A program made the position numbers and the translations under genes. Of a stretch of 64,000 nucleotides of DNA, positions 30,035-63,806 are shown piece by piece. The notes under the pieces were generated by a model, which was not told the origin of the DNA, ran no database searches, and worked only from the letters and a program-made list of their open reading frames with translations. The stretch is from a virus (Duplodnaviria > Caudoviricetes), in the IMG/VR virus record IMGVR_UViG_3300031555_001441, positions 80,270 to 144,269 of that record. One strand, written 5' to 3'. Within the stretch, counting starts at the first letter, position 1; every line of letters begins with the position of its first letter.

Positions 30035-30095
30035 TTGTGCCCTGACGTATGGAAAACCACGCGTATTCAAAATGAGTGGACAACGACGTTGTTGA

Positions 30096-30168
30096 TCTGA
30101 GTGAAGGGATTTGAACCCCCGACCTGATGGTCCCAAACCACCCGCTCTACCAACTGAGCTACACCCAG
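30096..30168 (-). tRNA. tRNA-Pro(UGG)
   Basis: Complete cloverleaf, loop TT-TGG-GA, T loop TTCAAAT; CCA not encoded. Confidence 0.92.
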
Positions 30169-30196
30169 ATACTGGGAAGGATTATTCTTCCCATTC

Positions 30197-30269
30197 TGGA
30201 AGGAACGGTAGGAGTCGAACCTACTTAAGTCAGTAGCGCTACTTCTGACTCTTGTCCGAAATCATCCCC
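30197..30269 (-). ncRNA. aberrant tRNA-like RNA
   Basis: Acceptor GGGGATG/CGTTCCT plus CCA; T arm GTAGG-TTCGACT-CCTAC; no proper D arm; 11-nt anticodon loop. Confidence 0.65.
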
Positions 30270-30286
30270 ATATGAATGTTGGCATC

Positions 30287-30802
30287 TTATTTTGCATACA
30301 GCGCATTGTTGACAATAGTGTATCCATGTTTATATAACGATTCATCGCTATTGATTGTATCTCCTGTAAGGAGTTCATCGAGCAGCTCCCGAATCAATCT
30401 GACTTCATTCTTGATGATTATGTCAGGAGCGTCAAGAACAATGAGTTTTGATAATCTTATATTTCTGTTATATATGTTTGCGAGCAGCCGAGCTACATAT
30501 GCAAATGAAATCATATCGTCATCATATATTCGGAGGACATCGTCTACGGGAATTTCATTGATACATACATCAGAGTAGTTATGCTCTTTTCTGAATTCGG
30601 CTACTTTCCGGTCAGCAAGCTCTCTGAAATCTTCATCGTGAGAAAAATATTCAAACACTGTATACTCCAGCTTTTCATCAGGCGTAAGCATTTTGTAATC
30701 AGTTTGTGTAAGCAGCATCTCAGCACAGTCTCTTTCGGTCATGTCCATATCAGATAGTGCGGACAGCGGAATAATCGATACAGGAAATTTGATGTTTTTC
30801 AT
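30287..30802 (-). CDS. hypothetical protein inserted in the RNA island
   Basis: 171-aa ORF with AGGAG RBS. Confidence 0.65.
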   Translation of the reverse strand: MKNIKFPVSIIPLSALSDMDMTERDCAEMLLTQTDYKMLTPDEKLEYTVFEYFSHDEDFRELADRKVAEFRKEHNYSDVCINEIPVDDVLRIYDDDMISFAYVARLLANIYNRNIRLSKLIVLDAPDIIIKNEVRLIRELLDELLTGDTINSDESLYKHGYTIVNNALYAK

Positions 30803-30839
30803 TATTTGATACTATCTCCTTATTACTATGAATATGCAG

Positions 30840-30911
30840 AGCTGGTGAATGGAGTCGAACCATCAATCCGTGCATTACAAGTGCACTGCTCTACCATTGA
30901 GCCACACCAGC
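30840..30911 (-). tRNA. tRNA-Thr(UGU)
   Basis: Cloverleaf; GTGCA-CT-TGT-AA-TGCAC. Confidence 0.92.
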
Positions 30912-30919
30912 AAATTAAA

Positions 30920-31059
30920 TTGAACCTAAATGACGAATGCGGTTATTCCAGCCTCAACACACGACTATTGTGCGCACTCACGGTGTACTATAGCGGTTTC
31001 TGTGGAGTCTGCTTGCAATCAGACGTTATCCACCATTTGCTCACTTCATTTAGATTCAA
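30920..31059 (-). ncRNA. family A ~140-nt RNA, copy 1
   Basis: 14-bp closing stem with a G-U pair on the minus strand; core shared with 33004-33138. Confidence 0.6.
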
Positions 31060-31390
31060 AGTGTAAGGACTAGCGAATCACCTTACTGTACCTATCTCCG
31101 CTTTCAAGGCTTTCGATTGCGCTCTATTAGGTAGAATTACACAACACTTTTAATTCAGATTCCTGACTTGACTCAGCATGAGTATCTGAACACCTAATAG
31201 AGAAATCAATTTAATAAAAGTTACCGTCACTTTCGCTCGGATTGATTACCGCGTTTCCTGCCTCATGGCAGTCACTCTTGTTCTGTCTTTGCAGTTGAGT
31301 TACGTCTCCCTATCATGATTCCGTTTGATCTGTCGGAGCAGCACGGAGATCGGTTAGCCTTGCTATTATTTCAAGCCAACAGTAACTTTT
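31060..31390 (-). ncRNA. ~330-nt structured RNA sharing motifs with the 1150-nt RNA
   Basis: Closed domains at 31216-31390 and 31122-31202; shared 16-mer and CGAAAGCC..CGGAGA..GGTAC. Confidence 0.55.
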
Positions 31391-31467
<77 letters not shown>

Positions 31468-31585
31468 ATGAATTTGAAAGTTCAGTCCGCCTTTCAGCCA
31501 TTCCAGTAAGGGCGATACACAGCTTACAAGTCTCTGGCATCTGATACCTACGAGAGGTAACCATAACACGCGTTGTTATGTATTA

Positions 31586-31700
31586 TAGGCTGTTCTACAC
31601 ACATTTAACTACTTCTGTCCAGTTCGTCTACTAACCCAAGCGTCCTATCCAGCAACGCTCCCGATATTCGGACGGGCGTTCATCCGCATCGTAGCACCTA
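31586..31700 (-). ncRNA. family B ~115-nt RNA, copy 1
   Basis: AGGTGCTACGA...TAAATG...GAACAGCCT handles. Confidence 0.55.
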
Positions 31701-31720
31701 CGTATTATATAACGATTCTA

Positions 31721-32101
31721 TTATTTAACTATGTCCTTGCTCAACAGATGAAAACATAAGAATTCGTAATTTTTAATCAAATGTGTATTTGTCGACTCAT
31801 CATACTCTATATAACCAGTACCGTAAGGTGTTAAATAATAATCAGACATCATAATATCTGCGATTGATTGCAAACTAGGTGATAGGACTGTCTCTGCAGA
31901 CTTATTGTCATCGTTAAGATCCGTAACAAACCCTAACCACTCACCTTCTCTACTGAATATATGTGTAGGATGCTCTTCAGATATCTGAGAAGCTAGAGAT
32001 TTATAGAAATCTTTCGGATATGTCCAACCTGATCTACGTTCGGTTTCAGTTGAGTTTAATGGCATCAATTGAAACGTGCATTTTACTTTCTCAGTACTCA
32101 T
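31721..32101 (-). CDS. hypothetical protein
   Basis: 126-aa ORF with GAGG RBS. Confidence 0.6.
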   Translation of the reverse strand: MSTEKVKCTFQLMPLNSTETERRSGWTYPKDFYKSLASQISEEHPTHIFSREGEWLGFVTDLNDDNKSAETVLSPSLQSIADIMMSDYYLTPYGTGYIEYDESTNTHLIKNYEFLCFHLLSKDIVK

Positions 32102-32111
32102 GTTGTACCTC

Positions 32112-32474
32112 TTACTTATCTAAATGACACTTATAATGTTCACTGTGATCATATATGAGTGTTGGATCATCCCTTAAGCCGAATTCTGTTTTAATTCGAG
32201 GAATAAAGTTCTCAGAAATGTTCGGGTTCATATAGATAACAGCTCTGCCCTTGTTGTCGATATCAACACGGCCTCTTGGATAGTATTTGAAATTGTGTTT
32301 GCAGCCTTTCGGCTTGACGTAGGGCCACAGTCTTTCGTGATTGTATGTGTTGCCGGACTTTGCGATTCCCTCGGTGTAATCATCTTCTACAAACGGGAAC
32401 GCTAACAGCTCGTCATCTACTATCCAGAACACGCCGCGTCTCGTTTCTTTTGCAGCTGTTATCAATCTTTTCAT
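32112..32474 (-). CDS. hypothetical protein with MKRLITAA tag
   Basis: GVFW...H...W...YYPRGRV...HYKC pattern seen in phage proteins. Confidence 0.65.
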   Translation of the reverse strand: MKRLITAAKETRRGVFWIVDDELLAFPFVEDDYTEGIAKSGNTYNHERLWPYVKPKGCKHNFKYYPRGRVDIDNKGRAVIYMNPNISENFIPRIKTEFGLRDDPTLIYDHSEHYKCHLDK

Positions 32475-32506
32475 AAGTTACGTCTTTCTCAATTTAAACA
32501 CAATCA

Positions 32507-32738
32507 AATCATCTCAAGGCTACCACTCCGCATCTACTCGCAAGCTCTAAATAAGATACTCACTTGCTCCTAGCTCGAAAGCTTTTCCTACCTCCTCGAA
32601 GTTGGGCTGATATTTCGCCTACAGACCAGTTCTCTTAAGAGTTTACAACCGTGTCTCCCTTCGGTGAGCTCTTTCTTTCTCATCAATTCGGACTCTCGAT
32701 CTCTGACCTTCGCTTACTATATAAACCTCGAGATGATT
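32507..32738 (-). ncRNA. putative structured ncRNA, ~230 nt
   Basis: 13-bp closing stem AAUCAUCUCGAGG/CCUUGAGAUGAUU (G-U on the minus strand). Confidence 0.5.
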
Positions 32739-32924
32739 AACCACGGAACTTTTCACGCCTGCTCCTGCATCGTAGGTAGCATCCGTTTCAATTCTATAAA
32801 CCCCAGCGTAGGGTGGCAATATATTTTGACATGCCGTACTCGTGCTACGCACATACCAGTGAATTTACGGTATATATCATTTCAACCGAAGGCTTCACCC
32901 TGCTAACTTAATGGGACTAATCCC

Positions 32925-32998
32925 TGGAGCAGATACGGAGAATCGAACTCCGACGATGAGATTGGAAATCTCAGGTTCTACCATTAAACTACATCTGC
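32925..32998 (-). tRNA. tRNA-Gly(UCC)
   Basis: Cloverleaf; TGAGA-TT-TCC-AA-TCTCA; CCA encoded. Confidence 0.93.
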
Positions 32999-33003
32999 AT
33001 ATT

Positions 33004-33138
33004 GAATCTGAAGAAAGAATATAAGTTATTCCTAATCAACACAACGACTATTAAAACGCACGTGCTCACGATGTATTATATAGGTTTCTCAAAGCCACTC
33101 TGCAGAGTGATATTTTTCGTCTCTCAATCTTCAGATTT
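33004..33138 (-). ncRNA. family A ~135-nt RNA, copy 2
   Basis: Closing stem AATCTGAAGA/TCTTCAGATT; core shared with 30920-31059. Confidence 0.6.
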
Positions 33139-33266
33139 TGGTGCACTCTACAAGATTCGAACTTGTCTAAACTGTCTGTAGCTTCTTCTACATATCAGCT
33201 CTTAGTTTCAGGCATCAAGAAGTATTGCCTTAGACCTTAGTGTTCTTCCAAATGAACTAAGAGTGC
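33139..33266 (-). ncRNA. 128-nt tRNA-like RNA with an enlarged anticodon/variable region
   Basis: Perfect acceptor GCACTCT/AGAGTGC-A-CCA; D arm GTTC/GAAC; T arm ACAAG-TTCGAAT-CTTGT; ~70-nt two-hairpin centre. Confidence 0.7.
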
Positions 33267-33351
33267 AGAATTGAGCCTCAGGGCGTCCCCATGTTGGCTC
33301 AGTGACAGTTGTGGTGTTCAGTCACTTCGAGTCAGTAGACTGTCAACTACT

Positions 33352-33512
33352 TAGCACAACTTTTAAGGATGAAGTTTGTGCCTTATCATAACCGCCCGTG
33401 TCGTAGGTCGCCCGCCACCTTTTTTGAACATGAGGCATGGAAGCTTCCTCAGCTAACAATGAGAGTCTAACTCATGTCTTCACCCCGAAGGGTCGCACTC
33501 CACGTTGTGCTA
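33352..33512 (-). ncRNA. putative structured ncRNA, ~160 nt
   Basis: 9-bp closing stem TAGCACAAC/GTTGTGCTA; CCC-TTCG-GGG tetraloop hairpin. Confidence 0.45.
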
Positions 33513-33528
33513 TGTTAGCATATTAAGT

Positions 33529-33668
33529 TGATGCAGGTAAGGATTTCCACCTTACATGAGCAAGTCTAAGTACACGATTTGACATTTTGTGGAATTACAC
33601 CTCTACGGGTACCGCAATCTTACTATCTCTACTCTTGTTCAAGCGTCTACGTATTCCGCCACTGCATC
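33529..33668 (-). ncRNA. 140-nt tRNA-Leu-like RNA with a long extended anticodon arm
   Basis: Acceptor GATGCAG/CTGCATC-A; Leu-type D arm GCGGAAT..GTAGACGC; atypical T loop TGGAAAT. Confidence 0.6.
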
Positions 33669-33774
33669 TGAGAGCCTAGACCTATATCACTCTCCGGTCC
33701 TCTGCAAGCTCTTTGAGGACTTTATCCGTTTCTGCGCGCATCCGACGAATACACTCGGACATTTCTAAATTGAA

Positions 33775-33895
33775 TTGTAGGCTGTTCATCAAACTCCATT
33801 TAACATGTACTGCTGCTCTATCCGATTTACGCTCAGGAACCTCCTGCATCTCGTCAAATACCGCTTACGATTCGGAAGCTTCGTAGCACCTACAA
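33775..33895 (-). ncRNA. family B ~120-nt RNA, copy 2
   Basis: TTGTAGG/CCTACAA stem with the same handles. Confidence 0.6.
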
Positions 33896-34059
33896 CTCTT
33901 GTTGTTTCTTCCCTGTGTCGTAGAGAACACACGCCTTTCACTGTAGTAGAAAAAGTAATTACTGCACGCTCGATTCTACCGTACTGACATAACGACCAAA
34001 AATGTTATGGAAATTTATTGGATCTCAGTAACTTGGAACGTCATTACCGAGAAGCGGTC

Positions 34060-34134
34060 TGGCTGAGGTAGCTGGATTTGAACCAGCGATGCAGGAGTCA
34101 AAGTCCTGTGTCTTGACCACTTGACTATACCCCA
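34060..34134 (-). tRNA. tRNA-Gln(UUG)
   Basis: Cloverleaf; CAGGA-CT-TTG-AC-TCCTG; CCA encoded. Confidence 0.93.
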
Positions 34135-34153
34135 ATATTTTGCAAGATTATAA

Positions 34154-34231
34154 TGGTTGTGAAGGTTGGACTTGAACCAACTTAATAACGTGCCTACATG
34201 TTATCGGCGTTGTGATTTCAATCACTTCAAG
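34154..34231 (-). ncRNA. aberrant tRNA-like RNA
   Basis: T arm GTTGG-TTCAAGT-CCAAC and CCA end; partial acceptor; non-standard D and anticodon arms. Confidence 0.55.
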
Positions 34232-34344
34232 AAGCAGTTTCTTACCTTACTCGAGATATTCTCAGTCTTACTTCTAACGTTGTCAGCGGAACATGCACCC
34301 GCCCGACTCGACCCTTCGCCTTCTTCACTATATCTTTTTAAACT

Positions 34345-34413
34345 AGGATTGTGTGAGAGTCGAACTCACTCCTGCAGTTTCTGAGGCTGCTGTGCGCCGT
34401 ACACCATCGCTCC
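34345..34413 (-). pseudogene. degenerate tRNA (loop CT-CAG-AA)
   Basis: T arm GTGAG-TTCGACT-CTCAC intact; acceptor stem has 3 mismatches; no CCA. Confidence 0.55.
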
Positions 34414-34484
34414 ATATAGATTGTACTTTCTTACTTACGTAGAAGAAACTTTTAAGAAGACGGATACATACTAAAAGCTTAATA

Positions 34485-35634
34485 TGGAGTTGGCAGTCTT
34501 TCCCACTGACTGCCTGAGACTCTATCTCTCATCACAGTCCTCTGTCACATTACTGTGCTCTTCGGCTTTTACCTCCACTAACGGAGGCGAGAGTCTCCCT
34601 GACATCCTTAGTACTTGCACAATCTGGCTTCACTTAATAGGAACATCGCTACGTTTCAGGTATAAGTACCAACAGCTTCGCCTCCCTCCGCAGGGACTTC
34701 CTCTGGACTCAGACCAGACTTTCCACCATTGAATACATACGATGCTATTCCATGTCGCATCCTATTTAAGTATATCGGAGTTTCACCGACACCTTACGAG
34801 AATCCGAACCCACCAATTCTCTGAGTACTACTGGCTCGCTTTAGTAATGCGATGCCTGACTGTTCCGAAGTTCGTCCGCAACTGTCTGAGTTTAACGGGC
34901 TATTTCTCCTTACTGAATCCTGAGACTCGGATTGATTACCGAGGAGAGATTCAACGGCTCTTTTTGTGCCGAAGTCTCTATTAACCTTCGGCTAAATTCC
35001 TCTCTTCGAAAATCTCTGCGCAGATAAGAGGAATACTTTAGGATGTAGTGGCAACCTCACTTTACTATAATCCACTACGTTACTCGAAGTACCTCTCCGA
35101 ATTTTTCGGCTTTCGCTAATCCAGTCTTACAACCTCGTACCTATTTACGGAGATACGCTGACCGAAGGTTTTAGTTAGAATAAGTGTAGCACCAACCTCA
35201 TTTGTGAAACTTGCTACCTACGGAGATACTTTTGCGCATTTCACGCATCCATCACCGTTCTTAGATCACTATCGTGTCTAAAGGTTGTTGATCTTAACTG
35301 GTACCTGAACCCACGAGTACCTTGGCGTTGTTGCACGCGTGTCCATCATTCAAGATATAACGGGCGACGTCCTTCCCGATCACGTATCATCGCTTTGATC
35401 AGAAGCGACTTCGAGATCAGCACCACTATTCATCTGAGGTAGATTTAATTCATCAACCACTTATCTGACTCTACGACCTTGTACTTCGGTGGTCATGCAC
35501 CTTCAGATCTCACTTTATTTCGAGCCTGTGAGCAGGACTTGGTGTGGAGAGCCTTTCTGTAGATACTTTCATGTGACTTTTTCACCTTTAGAGCGTACTC
35601 GCGAATACGACATCTTCAAGCTTCTCTAACTCCA
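34485..35634 (-). ncRNA. 1150-nt large structured ncRNA, GOLLD/ROOL-like candidate
   Basis: Begins 1 nt after the tRNA-Leu CCA; TGGAGTT/AACTCCA terminal stem; many hairpins; no credible minus-strand ORF. Confidence 0.6.
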
Positions 35635-35635
35635 C

Positions 35636-35719
35636 TGGTGCACCTGGAGAGACTTGAACTCTCACCCATCTTGGACTGGACCCTAAAACCAGCGCGTCTG
35701 CCATTTCCGCCACAGATGC
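35636..35719 (-). tRNA. tRNA-Leu(UAG)
   Basis: Class II cloverleaf; TT-TAG-GG loop; CCA encoded. Confidence 0.9.
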
Positions 35720-57035: not shown

Positions 57036-58886
57036 TTATTTAGTATTATTCAATGTGGAAGCAGACCATACCCACTTAATGACTCCCGAATCGTACACAC
57101 GGACAAATCCATGAGCCTCCATTATTTCTTTTTCAGTTTGATGCTCAATATCAATAGAAGCATCGTTGAATAAACTAATCAGGTTGTGTTTTTGACACCG
57201 TACTCTATGATAATATTTATTATCATCAATAGTTGTCCATACATAGCTGGGAGGTGTTTGATACATTCTACTAAATTGAAGTGTTTGATATAGATTACCT
57301 CTAGTATGCGCAACATCTGAAAATGATATTACTTTGTCAGGCTGATAATGTTTTAAGAAGTATTTGAATAATTTGCTAGCACCTCCAACAACTGAACAGT
57401 TTATCAGATTGCAGAATCGAGAAAGCTCCCATGTATTTGTTTCAGTGTGAGTTGTTTTACCTATTGTGTTTCTCAAATGATTGAATGTCATAACAGAAAC
57501 TAATTCATCTGTACTCTTTAACTTGAGTCCTATGTAAACTTTAGAAGTAAGCGCACCTTGCCGATGATTACTGTTTAGAAACTCTTTTCCAACAGCAGCA
57601 GGTATCTCGAATACATAAGTTTCACGAGCTCCTATGCGACGTGCAGTACATCCTAATAAGTTTGCAATCATGGACTTAATGACATCTTTGTGAGCTTTCC
57701 ATTCATATCCAAATATGTGAAATAAGAATATACCTTGTTCTGCCGCTTTTTCTGACTTATATTGATGGTATCGATAGTGTTTTGGTTTATCACCCCAACT
57801 AGTTCCTATTGATGAGTTATGCGTAAATGCCGGATTGCATTCAAACGCTATCTGGTATTGAGGAAGATAGATGTCAAGTTCGTGTGGTGTTATCATAGAT
57901 CTATCATTCTGAATGATCTCAACATTAGGTGATATCTGTTTGATGTAATCTACTACCTCACACTCTAACTGACTATACTGATGCGATATAATATCATGAC
58001 AATCATATTTAACTAAAATATCATATATAGTAGTATCAGTTACACCTAGATCTGTCATCAGTTGAAGCATTGTAGGCTTTTCGGTATAGTGTGTCAGCAC
58101 AAAGTCTCTTGGATCTGATTTGAATGCTGCGTACACATCTGCTTTTGACGGATCTGTCATGATATTGGCCAGTTCCGCTGCAGTGTATTTACGACCTTCT
58201 GGACCATAATGCTGACGATATGTATATGCTTTCTTAGCTTTGACTTCGTCATTCTGCATAGGGGATGGATGTCCGTATACAAGAGTACAAGTGAATCGAC
58301 GTCCATTTAGATATCTGTCCGATCTCATCACAGCAGAAAGTTTTCTTTTGATTTCAGGATGCTTAGCCGGATTGTCGACACCCATTCTTATTAAACACGT
58401 TTGTGCTCGCTTTTCTCGAACTTCAAGAGAGCTATTCTTCTTACTTATCTTATCTTTAACCTCTTGCAATTCGGAAACGTTGTCAACATTGTAACGTCCT
58501 CTAACTGTAGCAACATGCGCCGCATTGATACATTCTTGAGAGCAGTGCCGTGGCTTGTCTCTAGGCGAACATGTATATGATATTTCCTTTCCACAAACTT
58601 CACACAATGTTATGTGCGGACCTTTGCAGTACCTTTGCGAAGCTTGTACAGGTACAAACATCTTCCCGCACTCTTCACACTGACGCATCGGTTTTGACTG
58701 TTTAGATTGTGCAGCTAATTCATATGCACATTCTTTCGAACAACATTTATGCGGTTCACTAGGTCGCTGATATGCAACAGGTTTTCCGCAAACAGGACAT
58801 GGTCTAAAATGTGGACCTGGACAGTACACACCATTTCCTACTCTATCAAATTCTTTACCGCAGAGTTTACAAATATATTTTGACAT
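57036..58886 (-). CDS. free-standing putative homing endonuclease (Zn fingers, repeats, Vsr/DUF559-like nuclease, Mom-like C-domain)
   Basis: Multiple CxxC; ELDIYLP...IAFECN; WELSRFC...GGASKL...SFSD...GNLY. Confidence 0.7.
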   Translation of the reverse strand: MSKYICKLCGKEFDRVGNGVYCPGPHFRPCPVCGKPVAYQRPSEPHKCCSKECAYELAAQSKQSKPMRQCEECGKMFVPVQASQRYCKGPHITLCEVCGKEISYTCSPRDKPRHCSQECINAAHVATVRGRYNVDNVSELQEVKDKISKKNSSLEVREKRAQTCLIRMGVDNPAKHPEIKRKLSAVMRSDRYLNGRRFTCTLVYGHPSPMQNDEVKAKKAYTYRQHYGPEGRKYTAAELANIMTDPSKADVYAAFKSDPRDFVLTHYTEKPTMLQLMTDLGVTDTTIYDILVKYDCHDIISHQYSQLECEVVDYIKQISPNVEIIQNDRSMITPHELDIYLPQYQIAFECNPAFTHNSSIGTSWGDKPKHYRYHQYKSEKAAEQGIFLFHIFGYEWKAHKDVIKSMIANLLGCTARRIGARETYVFEIPAAVGKEFLNSNHRQGALTSKVYIGLKLKSTDELVSVMTFNHLRNTIGKTTHTETNTWELSRFCNLINCSVVGGASKLFKYFLKHYQPDKVISFSDVAHTRGNLYQTLQFSRMYQTPPSYVWTTIDDNKYYHRVRCQKHNLISLFNDASIDIEHQTEKEIMEAHGFVRVYDSGVIKWVWSASTLNNTK

Positions 58887-59020
58887 AAAAGTTGATCCTC
58901 CACATACTATAACGATTCAACATTATGAAAGGTTATATGGATAGGTGCATATCTTAAAATAGACAAAAAATAAAAAAAGAAATCAGCCGATTTCTCGGCT
59001 GACCCTTTGGTGTTTGTTGT

Positions 59021-60004
59021 TTAGGACCTGAAATCAGATGGTTTCATGTAGATCGCTCGGGATATTACAAACGGGACTGATACTTTGACAACAGATCCAC
59101 CCTCCTGGTTGTGTTCGCCGTTATCGAGAGCTCCTATCCAAGTTCCCGGACAGCGAATTACATCTCTTGGATTTCCAGCGCCATCATATTTGATGAAATA
59201 GACTTGTCTCATATACTGAGAAGGCAAACCCATCTTTTCAGTATCTGGATCAAAAACTTGACGCCTCCAAGCCCTTAGTGCTTCAAGCACATTTGGTTCG
59301 CAGAAGCAGTTGAGCGTCCATGTAACATCTTCAAATGCAACTTTGGACGGGAACTTAATGAGACCATTAGCGTAATGTACTGTGATGATGTCTTCAGACT
59401 CTGCGATAGCTCCAACAGTATCTGTACTCAATGTGAGCAGGTCAGCAAATTCTGTCGGAGTAGTTCCATCCATGTTGTATACTCTAACTTCAAAGTTGTT
59501 TGTTGTTAGCGGTACCCAGTTGTCGATACCTAACATATGGTTGGTCATTGTGATGTATTCGCACAAGTTCGCAACGCTTGCGCCGTCATGTAAGGTATCT
59601 GATTACATGACTGCTGAATCTTTCAATTCAGATTAGAACATATCTTCATCCGTTGTGTGAACGGAGCTGTATTTTTCTTCCACCGTAGGCGATTGTGGTT
59701 CTACTCTCCCGCAAGGAGATGTTCGTTGGACGTCTTTCATGTACACCTTTATTGGATTGTGTGTATGTAGAAAGTTCGCTGCTAAACATCCATTGTTCTA
59801 AATGTGACTGTTAGCACATCCGAAGATGCTTTTATTTCAGCATAAGTCATTCGTACACTTCTTTCTGCTTTCGCTCTATCACGCTCATCTTTTCAGATCA
59901 CGTTGTAGCTGTACGACTTTAGGAATTCAAAGCAGTTAACACAGGGTCATCACCAGTTACCTGATAATGAGGGCCAATCACCCCATCTTTAATGGTGTAA
60001 ACAT
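59021..60004 (-). CDS. T4 gp19-like tail tube protein split by an intron (exon 1 starts at 60004; exon 2 is 59545-59021)
   Basis: NNFEV, KFPSKV.FEDVT, L.AWRRQVFDP.T..MG....Y, YDG.G..W.G; the GGAGG RBS precedes only the ATG at 60004. Confidence 0.75.
59546..59980 (-). mobile_element. ORF-less group I intron
   Basis: P at 59926-59939, Q at 59775-59786, R at 59719-59731, S at 59633-59647; P7 GAACAU/AUGUUC; P3, P8 and P9 stems; terminal G. Confidence 0.8.
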
Positions 60005-60157
60005 ATCTTTATTCTCCTCCTATAAAATAAAATGATTGTTGTATGAAGATATACAAGGTGTGCGACTGAGAATCATATCATACAATAAAATATATTTATT
60101 TACAATCACCTTATATACATAAAAAAGAGGATGTAAGGGACAGGAGAATGATATCTT

Positions 60158-60933: not shown

Positions 60934-61419
60934 TCATAGTGTTACTAAATCATCAAGAGGTACAACAGGTATTCCTTCCTGTTCTGCATATTCAATAGCT
61001 ACTGGATTATTTGTGTGAAATACACATCTAGGACAAAATGAAAATGCAGAATGTGCTATCTTGATTACGCTATCTGGAATAGTAACATCTGAAAGTTGAT
61101 TGCAGTTAGAAAATACGTTACCGCCGATCACACTAACAAAATTCGGTACATCTACATGCGTAAGCTGTCTACAATTATAGAATGCTTGAAATCCTATATG
61201 TGTTAGTGCCTCAGGCAATGTTATTGATTTTAACTGCACGCAATTTTGAAATGCAAAATCACGTATATCAGTTACATCTGCATCTATGTTGACTTGCTCC
61301 AAGTTAACGCAATTGTAGAACGCGTATTCTCGAATCACTTCTGTATTAACTACACGCACTTCAGTAAGTTGCATGCGCTCTGCATTTGATAATATTTGAT
61401 CGGAATATTCAACAAACAT
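60934..61419 (-). CDS. BspA/TpLRR leucine-rich repeat protein
   Basis: IxxxAFxNCxxLxxIxLP 23-aa repeats. Confidence 0.85.
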   Translation of the reverse strand: MFVEYSDQILSNAERMQLTEVRVVNTEVIREYAFYNCVNLEQVNIDADVTDIRDFAFQNCVQLKSITLPEALTHIGFQAFYNCRQLTHVDVPNFVSVIGGNVFSNCNQLSDVTIPDSVIKIAHSAFSFCPRCVFHTNNPVAIEYAEQEGIPVVPLDDLVTL

Positions 61420-61850: not shown

Positions 61851-63806
61851 TCATGTGATGTATTCCCATAGTATTGTACCAGAATCAAAAACTTGAACAA
61901 ATCCATGTTCTTCCATTATTTGTTTTTCTGATTTTGAGAGATCAACATCTTCATCATGCAAAAATTGTTTTATGTTTTGCTTCTGAGCACTATATCTATG
62001 ATAGCTTATATCAGTACGAGCATCGACCCAAACGTATCCGGGATCTGATTTTCTTATTTCTGTGAAGCCCAACAACTTGTAAACATTTCCACGAGTATGC
62101 GCTCTATCTGAAAATGATCTAACGCGTGCGGGTTGATATGTTCTTACAAAGTGTTTGAATAGTTTATCTGCCCCTCCGACTACAGAAGTATTTAACTTGT
62201 TGCAGAATCTAACAAGTTCCCAACAATCAGATAGATCTGTATTGTCTGTACCAATGCTTGAGCGCATCTTACCGAAGGTCATTACAGATACTAATTCATC
62301 GTTATAGAACAGCCCCAGTCGAATCGGTGAATTAGCATTACCTTGTCTGTGATTTGCATTCAAGAAGGAAGCGCAGTCTGATGCAGATACCTCTTTAATT
62401 TGACATTGACGTGCATACAGCTTATGTGTATTCTTACCGAGCAGATTTCTCAACATTGATACGATGATTTCTCGGCTGTATGTCCACTCTGAGCCAAATA
62501 TATGAAATAAGAAAATACCTTGTGATTCACACATCTCTGTTTTCTTTTGATGATAGTTGTATTTGATCGGAGGCTCATTCCTTCCGAATGTGTTCATAGA
62601 TGAATTATGAGTTGATGTCGGATTGCACTCAATTCCTATTTTGTATTCCGGCAGATACAGATCCAATTCATACGGCGTGATAACACGATGTGTATTTCGT
62701 TCAATGTTCAGATTAGGATCAATACTCAGCAGCGCGTTATAAACTTCATTCTCCATATATGAATAGACGTATGCAACCGCGTCTCGCATGTTATTATCTT
62801 CAAGTATTTGAGCTGTGCTTCCTTCAAATATTCCAATAGATGCAGCAAGTTGCCTCAATGTAGGTTTGATTACAAACTCTTCCGAAATATACTTGTGCGG
62901 ATCTTTTCTAAATCGAATCAAGTTATCAATTTTTGATGGATCTGTCATACGAAGTTGTTTCCATTGTGCACTTTGAGAAAACCATCTAACTCCATACTTC
63001 TCTTGAAACGCTTGTTCTGTATTTGCAACCCCTAAGTCAGATTGAAGAAAACACGTATTGCCATATCGAGCTAAACATGTTGCTCGTGTCTTTTCTTTTA
63101 TTGCTTCGGATTGCATCGGATTCTCATATCCGTATTTCTCTAACCAAGAGGTTCTTGCCGATTGATATATTTCGTCACTCTGATATGGATAGTGGACACC
63201 ATAATGTGCAAACAGAGTCTCTTTAGACATCGCCCGGACCTCAGGATTCGCAAATGGTTCTCTATATCCTGTTTTTGTCTCATAAGTATTGTGAGCTTTT
63301 TCTCGGATCTCAGGAACGGCTAATACACAACTTTTTCCATATTTTTCTAAATTAGTTTCTTCAATAGACGCAATAACTCGTTCTTTATATTCTGAGTCTG
63401 CCCATTTCTCTGACATCGCACGACGACTCTCCTCAGTCTGTGTATGCCAATCGCAGCCATACTTTTCGCGATTAGTTGTCTTAGCTTGTTCGACAACATT
63501 AGCATTCTGCATTGGATGCTCGGTACCAAAGCGCTGCAAATTAGTAGCTACAATCTTTGCTTGCACTTCTGAAGAACATGCAGGGGCTACACCACCGTAC
63601 ACTTTCATATTAGTAGCTTTACGAACAGCAGCTTCACACGTCTTAGAACATGTGCGCTTGCGATCTTTCTCAGTTAATCGTGACCTCGGAATCTCAAACA
63701 ACTTTCCACAATTGATACACTTGTCAAAGTGCTGCCCATTACAGAAACGCTGACGTCCTGTATTTGTTTCAAACTCCTTACCGCACAATTCGCACACCTT
63801 AATCAT
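61851..63806 (-). CDS. free-standing putative homing endonuclease, paralogue of 57036-58886
   Basis: CxxC motifs; about 9 T.L.KYG..NP.Q repeats; ELDLYLPEYKIGIECN; WELVRFCNKL..GGADKL. Confidence 0.72.
   Translation of the reverse strand: MIKVCELCGKEFETNTGRQRFCNGQHFDKCINCGKLFEIPRSRLTEKDRKRTCSKTCEAAVRKATNMKVYGGVAPACSSEVQAKIVATNLQRFGTEHPMQNANVVEQAKTTNREKYGCDWHTQTEESRRAMSEKWADSEYKERVIASIEETNLEKYGKSCVLAVPEIREKAHNTYETKTGYREPFANPEVRAMSKETLFAHYGVHYPYQSDEIYQSARTSWLEKYGYENPMQSEAIKEKTRATCLARYGNTCFLQSDLGVANTEQAFQEKYGVRWFSQSAQWKQLRMTDPSKIDNLIRFRKDPHKYISEEFVIKPTLRQLAASIGIFEGSTAQILEDNNMRDAVAYVYSYMENEVYNALLSIDPNLNIERNTHRVITPYELDLYLPEYKIGIECNPTSTHNSSMNTFGRNEPPIKYNYHQKKTEMCESQGIFLFHIFGSEWTYSREIIVSMLRNLLGKNTHKLYARQCQIKEVSASDCASFLNANHRQGNANSPIRLGLFYNDELVSVMTFGKMRSSIGTDNTDLSDCWELVRFCNKLNTSVVGGADKLFKHFVRTYQPARVRSFSDRAHTRGNVYKLLGFTEIRKSDPGYVWVDARTDISYHRYSAQKQNIKQFLHDEDVDLSKSEKQIMEEHGFVQVFDSGTILWEYIT

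Follow-up and report, generated by a model that had tools for sequence, protein, structure and literature searches.

A group I intron in a phage tail-tube gene with a 5' cut most likely one base before the usual U, as known from IStron ribozymes

The stretch of DNA analysed here (64,000 nucleotides, hereafter the window) corresponds to bases 80270-144269 of a 144,269-bp IMG/VR virus record with an estimated completeness of 96%. On the strength of its sequence and of covariation in its relatives, we conclude that a region on the minus strand of the window is a real group I intron that splits a tail-tube gene, at a junction that leaves one base too many under the textbook splicing rule. This odd junction is most likely a rare quirk already known from IStron ribozymes, that is, a cut one base before the usual U. 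We consider it probable that the 5' splice site lies after G59981 and, with omega-G59546 at the other end, yields a tube protein of 182 amino acids (aa).

Results

Layout of the gene and of the split junction

All features below lie on the minus strand, and the sign ^ marks a splice junction. A ribosome binding site, GGAGG (60016-60020), can be read directly in the sequence 11 nt upstream of the ATG of exon 1. Exon 1 (59981-60004) has eight codons, MFTPLKMG, and ends in G59981 under the favoured reading; its frame runs ATG (60004-60002) TTT ACA CCA TTA AAG ATG GGG and then meets a TGA whose T is position 59980. The intervening sequence is an ORF-less group I intron of the IA2 type (59546-59980, 435 nt), identified by an Rfam match and by a family alignment with covariation, whose limits under the same reading are U59980 as first base and omega-G59546 as last base. 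Its 3' end reads ...CACAAUG; in the DNA, CAATG at 59550-59546 is directly followed by ACC AAC CAT ATG, in a frame that is open to the stop codon at 59021. Exon 2 (59021-59545), TNHMLGIDNW... to the stop codon, encodes the tail-tube protein, and a terminator-like hairpin with a T-run (58980-59005) is found just after that stop codon.

We computed the products of the two obvious joins. Joining G59981 to A59545 gives MFTPLKMGTNHML..., a protein of 182 aa. The textbook join, U59980 to A59545, leaves one surplus U: the ligated exons would read ...GGGGUACC..., and the product is frameshifted, with a stop after 26 residues. Direct reading thus bore out the coordinates, the sequence features and the +1 frame problem given in the initial annotation, and the frameshift that it had predicted for cleavage after U59980 is the one that ends in this 26-residue product.

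Identity of exon 2 and gene calls

The name of tail-tube gene, which had been given at the outset, was upheld by two comparisons of the exon 2 product. Against PHROG it matched phrog_4542, 'tail tube protein', with an E value of 3e-11, and its AF2 model (pLDDT 68, 17 sequences) matched the tubes of the Klebsiella phage KP1 (9ev2) and of T4 (5w5f) with E values of about 1e-6 and a TM score of about 0.6; the fold matches of the same score include contractile injection systems. Judging from the sequence match and the predicted fold taken together, exon 2 encodes a contractile-tail tube protein (T4 gp19-like), while a tube-initiator paralogue may be an alternative identity for the product. The gene call stored with the record is a 150-aa fragment (P0004, 59021-59473), 100% identical, that starts at an internal Met. 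The intron-bearing relatives have been called as products of 170, 174, 175, 176 or 197 aa, with false starts.

The ribozyme core

The Rfam family RF00028 matched positions 59989-59614 with 33.3 bits (E = 2e-6) when the region was searched and with 26 bits (E = 8.4e-6) when the whole 144-kb genome was searched; the score does not reach the gathering threshold of 50 bits, so that the match falls outside the family by the curated cut-off, yet its E value is significant. IMG/VR, ENA and Logan assemblies supplied further alleles of this gene that carry an intron, and we aligned the window intron with 11 phage introns and the CbISt3 ribozyme (13 sequences). All the classical core blocks are common to this alignment, and RNAalifold predicted P1, P2, P3, P4, P5, P6, P7.1, P7.2, P8, P9 and a terminal hairpin, with compensatory changes in 54 of the 72 predicted pairs. 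P7 is missing from the predicted fold because it is pseudoknotted. It is perfectly complementary in each of the 13 sequences and occurs in four versions, GAACA/UGUUC (window), GAUCA/UGAUC, GACUA/UAGUC and GAUUA/UAAUC, with an invariant G-C pair. In the window its 5' strand, GAACA, is at 59720-59724, and its G belongs to the invariant pair, the candidate guanosine-binding pair; its 3' strand, UGUUC, is at 59636-59640 and is the complement of 59724-59720, the pairing being compensated in the relatives. The covarying core and this pair confirm the group I intron with an intact G-C pair that had been proposed in the initial annotation.

P1 (59970-59984), as read from the sequence, pairs the 5' strand GGGGU (59984-59980) with the guide GCCCU (59974-59970), and the U59980-G59974 wobble pair is directly followed by a P1 loop of 5 nt, GAUUG. 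This GGGU/GCCC layout is common to the other intron alleles at the site, with a one-base bulge in L006. The P2 hairpin (59947-59970), placed by the family alignment, has a 10-bp stem and a GUAA loop; all 10 predicted pairs are variable across the 13 sequences, and in nine the variation is compensatory. Between P7 and P3' (59680-59719) lie P7.1 and P7.2, the hallmark of subgroup IA2, as covarying hairpins at 59719-59705 and 59698-59680, and P9, P9.1 and P9.2 are also present. On the basis of these predicted elements the intron is assigned to subgroup IA2. The loop of the last peripheral hairpin, GUUGCGAA (59568-59575, columns 555-562 of the family alignment), has a core, UUGCGA, that is invariant in all 13 sequences, CbISt3 included; the GCGA inside it fits the GNRA tetraloop pattern and may be engaged in a tertiary contact. 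No endonuclease gene was found in the intron, whose longest open frame is 54 codons, and a search of the genome with a DNA profile of the family (nhmmer) gave no second copy, meaning that the intron is present in single copy.

The frame of the intron-less homologues

We looked at the junction in homologues that have no intron. Among 726 database homologues, most of them 181-182 aa long, the uninterrupted ones begin MF[TS]P[LI]xMG-TNHML, and 113 proteins fit G-x-x-[HF]-[MI]-[LVW]-[GN] with 'TN' after the G, as compared with a single one with 'SN'. At the DNA level, eight intron-less loci (L002-L005, L007-L009 and L012) read ATG GGN^ACN AAY, and a ninth (L013) reads CTA GGC^ACA AAT. With some 100 intron-less homologues showing MFxPLxMG^TNHML, GGG has to be joined to ACC for the mature protein. 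The G59981 join restores this frame exactly, with 182 aa as against 181-182 aa in the homologues. As for the ends expected of a classical group I intron, namely a 5' exon ending in the wobble-pair U and an intron ending in G, G59546 is present and the exon does not end in U, because the frame of the homologues requires it to end in G59981. Alignment with intron-less homologues had been suggested as a check in the initial annotation, and what it gives fits the first of the in-frame options listed there, a join after GGG.

The codons of exon 1 differ synonymously among the intron alleles (CCA, CCG or CCT; TTA, CTA, CTG, TTG or CTT), and the peptide is therefore under selection, translated in the protein and fused in frame. 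A second in-frame option, an alternative P1 that would give MF-TNHML, conflicts with the conservation of TPLxMG, with synonymous changes, in both intron-bearing and intron-less alleles. We also went by hand, in the window and in L016, through other U...G splice pairs near the junction, which lose or gain conserved residues or have no start codon, and through alternative starts in the textbook-ligated mRNA, which show the same faults.

In the window and in L014, an allele from another sample whose protein is 87% identical and whose P1 loop and 3' tail are different, the last G of the intron completes an AUG (59548-59546 in the window) that is in frame with exon 2. This AUG is probably a coincidence, and it accounts for the gene calls of 175 aa (e.g. 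P0001). One could take it, together with these calls, as the real start of the tube protein (MTNHML...), the intron being unspliced or irrelevant, and we find this very improbable: there is no Shine-Dalgarno sequence upstream of 59548, the other lineages are without a terminal-G AUG, exon 1 keeps its ribosome binding site and a peptide under purifying selection, and the ribozyme core covaries.

Relationship to group B IStron ribozymes

Among 50,697 phage records, the best DNA match of the window intron (blastn, E = 1e-13) is to positions 128252-128575 of Clostridium phage c-st, an unannotated stretch immediately 5' of the IS OrfA/OrfB genes. We took this stretch as the CbISt3 ribozyme because it lies directly 5' of the OrfA/OrfB pair; CbISt3 is the c-st IStron listed with both ORFs (PMC4227781). 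All core elements of the window intron align with it, as they should for homologous ribozymes. Group B IStrons insert after AGGG, TGGG or GAGG (Tourasse, Stabell and Kolsto 2014, PMC4227781), and in their P1 the U-G pair abuts the P1 loop (PMC4227781). For one of them, BcISt1, RT-PCR established that splicing occurs after the G and that the intron begins with the U of the U-G pair: the cloned products were ligated exons without the U and a full-length intron circle with it, and circles without the first base were obtained as well (PMC4227781). Splicing after G is proven only for BcISt1. The window has the corresponding layout, UGGGG^U, in which GGG pairs with CCC and the U-G pair is next to the loop, and by comparison with the intron-less homologues U59980 is probably intronic. 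The join after GGG thus agrees with the published experiments on group B IStrons as well as with the intron-less homologues.

To judge from these alignments, the window ribozyme and those of group B (IS607-type) IStrons come from one and the same lineage. The window element itself is not an IStron, only a relative of its ribozyme part, because it is without transposase and without a CGG end: the 435 nt of the intron contain no IS607-family ORF A or B (longest frame, 54 codons) and no sign of the long AT-rich inverted-repeat stem, and they do not end in the CGG of group B IStrons.

The favoured reading can be put in terms of group I chemistry as follows. P1 would dock one base out of its usual register, so that exogenous G would cleave between G59981 and U59980. 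The last exon base would be G59981, paired to C59973 of the guide, and the wobble U (U59980-G59974), which adjoins the P1 loop, would become the first intron base. Next, G59981 would attack after omega-G59546, and the product, ...AUG GGG^ACC AAC..., would be the mRNA for MFTPLKMG-TNHML, 182 aa. The scheme is chemically coherent, with a shift in the docking register of P1 alone and a normal role for omega-G in the second step. By analogy with BcISt1, the window intron presumably self-splices, and presumably does so at G59981.

Junctions of the related intron lineages

L014 has the same junction as the window, GGGG^U...G^ACU (in DNA, ATGGGG^T...ATG^ACT). Nine other sequence-distinct alleles, with an intron at the same site and three Gs (L016, L032, L046, L031, L043, L010, L006, L050 and L174), read GGG^U...G^[U or C]ACN. 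By the textbook rule exactly one surplus base is left in the window, in L014 and in each of the nine three-G alleles, and a cut before the U gives Gly-Thr in 11 alleles out of 11. All the related lineages but one (L019, see below) carry the +1 surplus, among them at least eight further intron lineages at this site and the one six bases downstream. From these comparisons, the one-base surplus is a family trait and is systematic.

These data bear on the idea that the fourth G at 59981-59984 arose in sequencing, as raised in the initial annotation, or in assembly, the true junction being GGU^ACC. With three Gs the textbook join would indeed be in frame; however, both the four Gs and the G^ACN recur in L014, which was assembled independently from a different sample, and the three-G lineages carry the extra base at the 3' side instead, which makes the surplus a trait of the family. 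An error is therefore extremely improbable. Since the window, L014 and the nine three-G alleles all carry the surplus, both this option and the alternative P1 that would join MF to TNHML can be disposed of. A search for further four-G junctions in metagenomes, made in two scans, gave nothing or chance matches only.

A second lineage of the same ribozyme family is inserted six bases downstream (L011, L020-23, L025 and L176; intron coordinates, L020:1020-1496, L011:1605-2075 and L176 about 805-1196, with the exon 1 ATG of the latter at 776). It reads ACG AA^U...G^A CAU AUG and also has one surplus base. In this lineage a shift at the 5' side leads to Lys where the homologues keep Asn, and the Asn is kept only if the 3' cut falls one base beyond the terminal G. 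The guide is perfectly complementary to this Asn product, the pairing with exon 2 being 4 bp in L020 and a palindromic 6 bp in L176. When we looked for more downstream-site alleles with a degenerate scan, the tail-tube gene was present in 0 of 117 loci, among the matches listed. A second group I intron is seen further in the tail-tube gene in L011 (2125-2500, before FEVRIY) and in L050 (550-940, after GVD).

The exception, L019 (1098-1453), is a single short contig. Only the textbook rule keeps it in frame (GGU^CAC ACC, with one added His), whereas the one-base-early rule puts it out of frame. Misassembly, a dead allele or a variant with the textbook register could each account for it. Its junction resembles that of the L046 type with two extra bases. 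As for the pairing of exon 2 with the guide, the first three bases of exon 2 in L014 pair with it in the textbook register, adjoining the wobble G. P10 is strong in L031, L043, L006, L020 and L176 and absent in the window, and it does not separate a shift at the 5' side from a shift at the 3' side at this site.

We thus weighed two other ways of removing the surplus base. In the first, the 5' cut would be the textbook one after U59980 and the 3' cut would fall after A59545, giving AUG GGG UCC AAC and MFTPLKMG-SNHML; this is the 3' site one base later that was listed among the in-frame options of the initial annotation. The computed product is in frame, and the same rule keeps Gly-Thr in the three-G lineages and Asn in the downstream-site lineage, where the guide complementarity and exon 2 pairing of L020 (4 bp) and L176 (palindromic 6 bp) are those of its product. 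Moreover, Ser is found at residue 9 in one natural homologue, P0114; its codon is AGC and not UCN, however, so that it is no footprint of such splicing, and Thr is near-universal at this position (113 'TN' against 1 'SN'). The intron would furthermore end in A (U or C in the relatives) and not in G. To our knowledge, all known group I chemistry requires a terminal G in the G-binding site. In BcISt1, the shift was demonstrated at the 5' side (PMC4227781). With Ser in place of a conserved Thr and an intron end other than G, we consider this option improbable.

In the second, both ends would be cut by the textbook, GGG U ACC would be kept in the mRNA and a +1 ribosomal frameshift would recover the frame; or else cuts at the G and at the U would both occur, so that only a part of the mRNA would be productive, as a control of dosage. 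In all lineages but one there is exactly one surplus base at the junction, and if it were skipped, the conserved residues would all be regained in each of the three lineage types; in addition, the L014 guide pairs contiguously with GGGGU^ACU, and the BcISt1 circles without the first base mean that the bond after the U is also reactive (PMC4227781). On the other side, the junctions (GGG-U-ACC, GGU-U-ACN or GGU-C-ACN, AAU-A-CAU) have no slippery or hungry-codon motif in common, the anticodon loops of the phage tRNA-Gly and tRNA-Asn are of the normal length of 7 nt, an inefficient frameshift fits poorly with a protein that is needed in very many copies, and the ligated exons of BcISt1 were without the U (PMC4227781). 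We judge this possibility quite improbable.

The cut after G59981 remains the favoured reading, and several points can be set against it. From the sequence comparisons, the same rule would give Lys for a conserved Asn in the downstream-site lineage, L019 would be in frame only by the textbook, and the exon 2 of L014 would pair with the guide in the textbook register; because these three cases do not fit, the 3'-shift and retained-U explanations are kept alive. The window intron is also without the CGG 3' end and the transposase of IStrons, and its Rfam score is below the gathering threshold.

Genomic surroundings

Two large paralogous genes (57036-58886 and 61851-63806) flank the tube gene and match homing-endonuclease and HNH PHROGs, DUF7487 and, weakly, the Mom family. 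Of 13 intron-bearing loci, 12 have genes of this type next to the tube gene, as against 5 of 10 intron-less ones, these loci being phylogenetically non-independent. The pattern is compatible with free-standing endonucleases that would mobilise ORF-less introns. Two genes upstream of the tube gene, a 161-aa protein (60934-61419) has leucine-rich repeats of the BspA type (PF13306, E = 5e-32). A tRNA cluster (30094-35719) contains six ordinary genes, for Pro, Thr, Asn, Gly, Gln and Leu, and there is a seventh, weak tRNA match at 34345-34413 (Rfam). Quadruplet decoding was considered and rejected, the six tRNAs of the window being ordinary and tRNA-Gly(UCC) and tRNA-Asn(GUU) having anticodon loops of 7 nt.

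Discussion

If the favoured reading holds, the consequences for annotation are direct. Gene callers miss the start of the 182-aa product, and textbook intron rules would annotate a frameshifted pseudogene, whereas the one-base-early rule would lead to correct tail-tube annotation across a large group of uncultured phages. The 5' register of IStrons, described in Bacillus and Clostridium, would also exist in free, transposon-less introns of phage structural genes, which speaks for the view that IStrons took up an intron lineage already present in phages or Firmicutes. The family moreover offers many natural variants in which to study how P1 docking leads to the choice of the cut site.

Both the downstream-site lineage and L019 hint that the family may choose its splice sites more loosely than a single rule would allow. 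There is a slim chance that the tail-tube introns of this phage group do not all follow a single rule; in that case either neighbouring phosphates would be chosen between at both ends, which would be an undescribed looseness in the choice of group I splice sites, or a mix of productive and frameshifted mRNAs would be made and would set the level of the tube protein.

Several known introns can be compared with that of the window. The td intron of T4 shares with it a P1 of the GGGU/GCC type and the IA2 architecture. The td intron is cut after the U and carries the gene of the I-TevI endonuclease. The introns of Twort orf142, which were reportedly the subject of work by Landthaler and Shub in 1999, use an ordinary U-ending 5' exon. 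According to PMC11878797, orf142 of Staphylococcus phage Twort has three self-splicing IA2 introns and was later recognised as the gene of the tail tube. Twort and the window have in common ORF-less IA2 introns in a myovirus tail-tube gene, and the multi-intron orf142 resembles L011 and L050, each with two introns in the tail-tube gene; the tube proteins of Twort and of the window are only distantly related. The initial annotation had thus overrated the novelty of an intron in such a gene, since orf142 is an intron-bearing tail-tube gene (PMC11878797) and the one-base shift was published in 2014.

A stand-alone IA2 intron of Turicibacter, which is IS-less and related to CbISt1 and CbISt4, has a homing site ending in GG (PMC4227781). 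It differs from the window intron in being bacterial and in its host gene, and the two are likened here by description. The group B IStrons (BcISt1 of Bacillus cereus; CbISt1-4 of Clostridium botulinum and of phages c-st and D-1873; PMC4227781) are of subgroup IA2 like the window intron, and share with it a target ending in GG (UGGGG in the window) and a U-G pair abutting the P1 loop. In these IStrons U is the first intron base and the 5' exon ends in G, as would be the case in the window. The DNA of the window core resembles the c-st element taken as CbISt3 (E = 1e-13), with the same invariant UUGCGA in the last hairpin loop. Unlike group B IStrons, the window intron has no transposase ORFs, ends in ...AAUG and not in CGG, and is an ordinary ORF-less intron in a phage structural gene. 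Altogether, the window intron is a further example of a known oddity and not a new mechanism.
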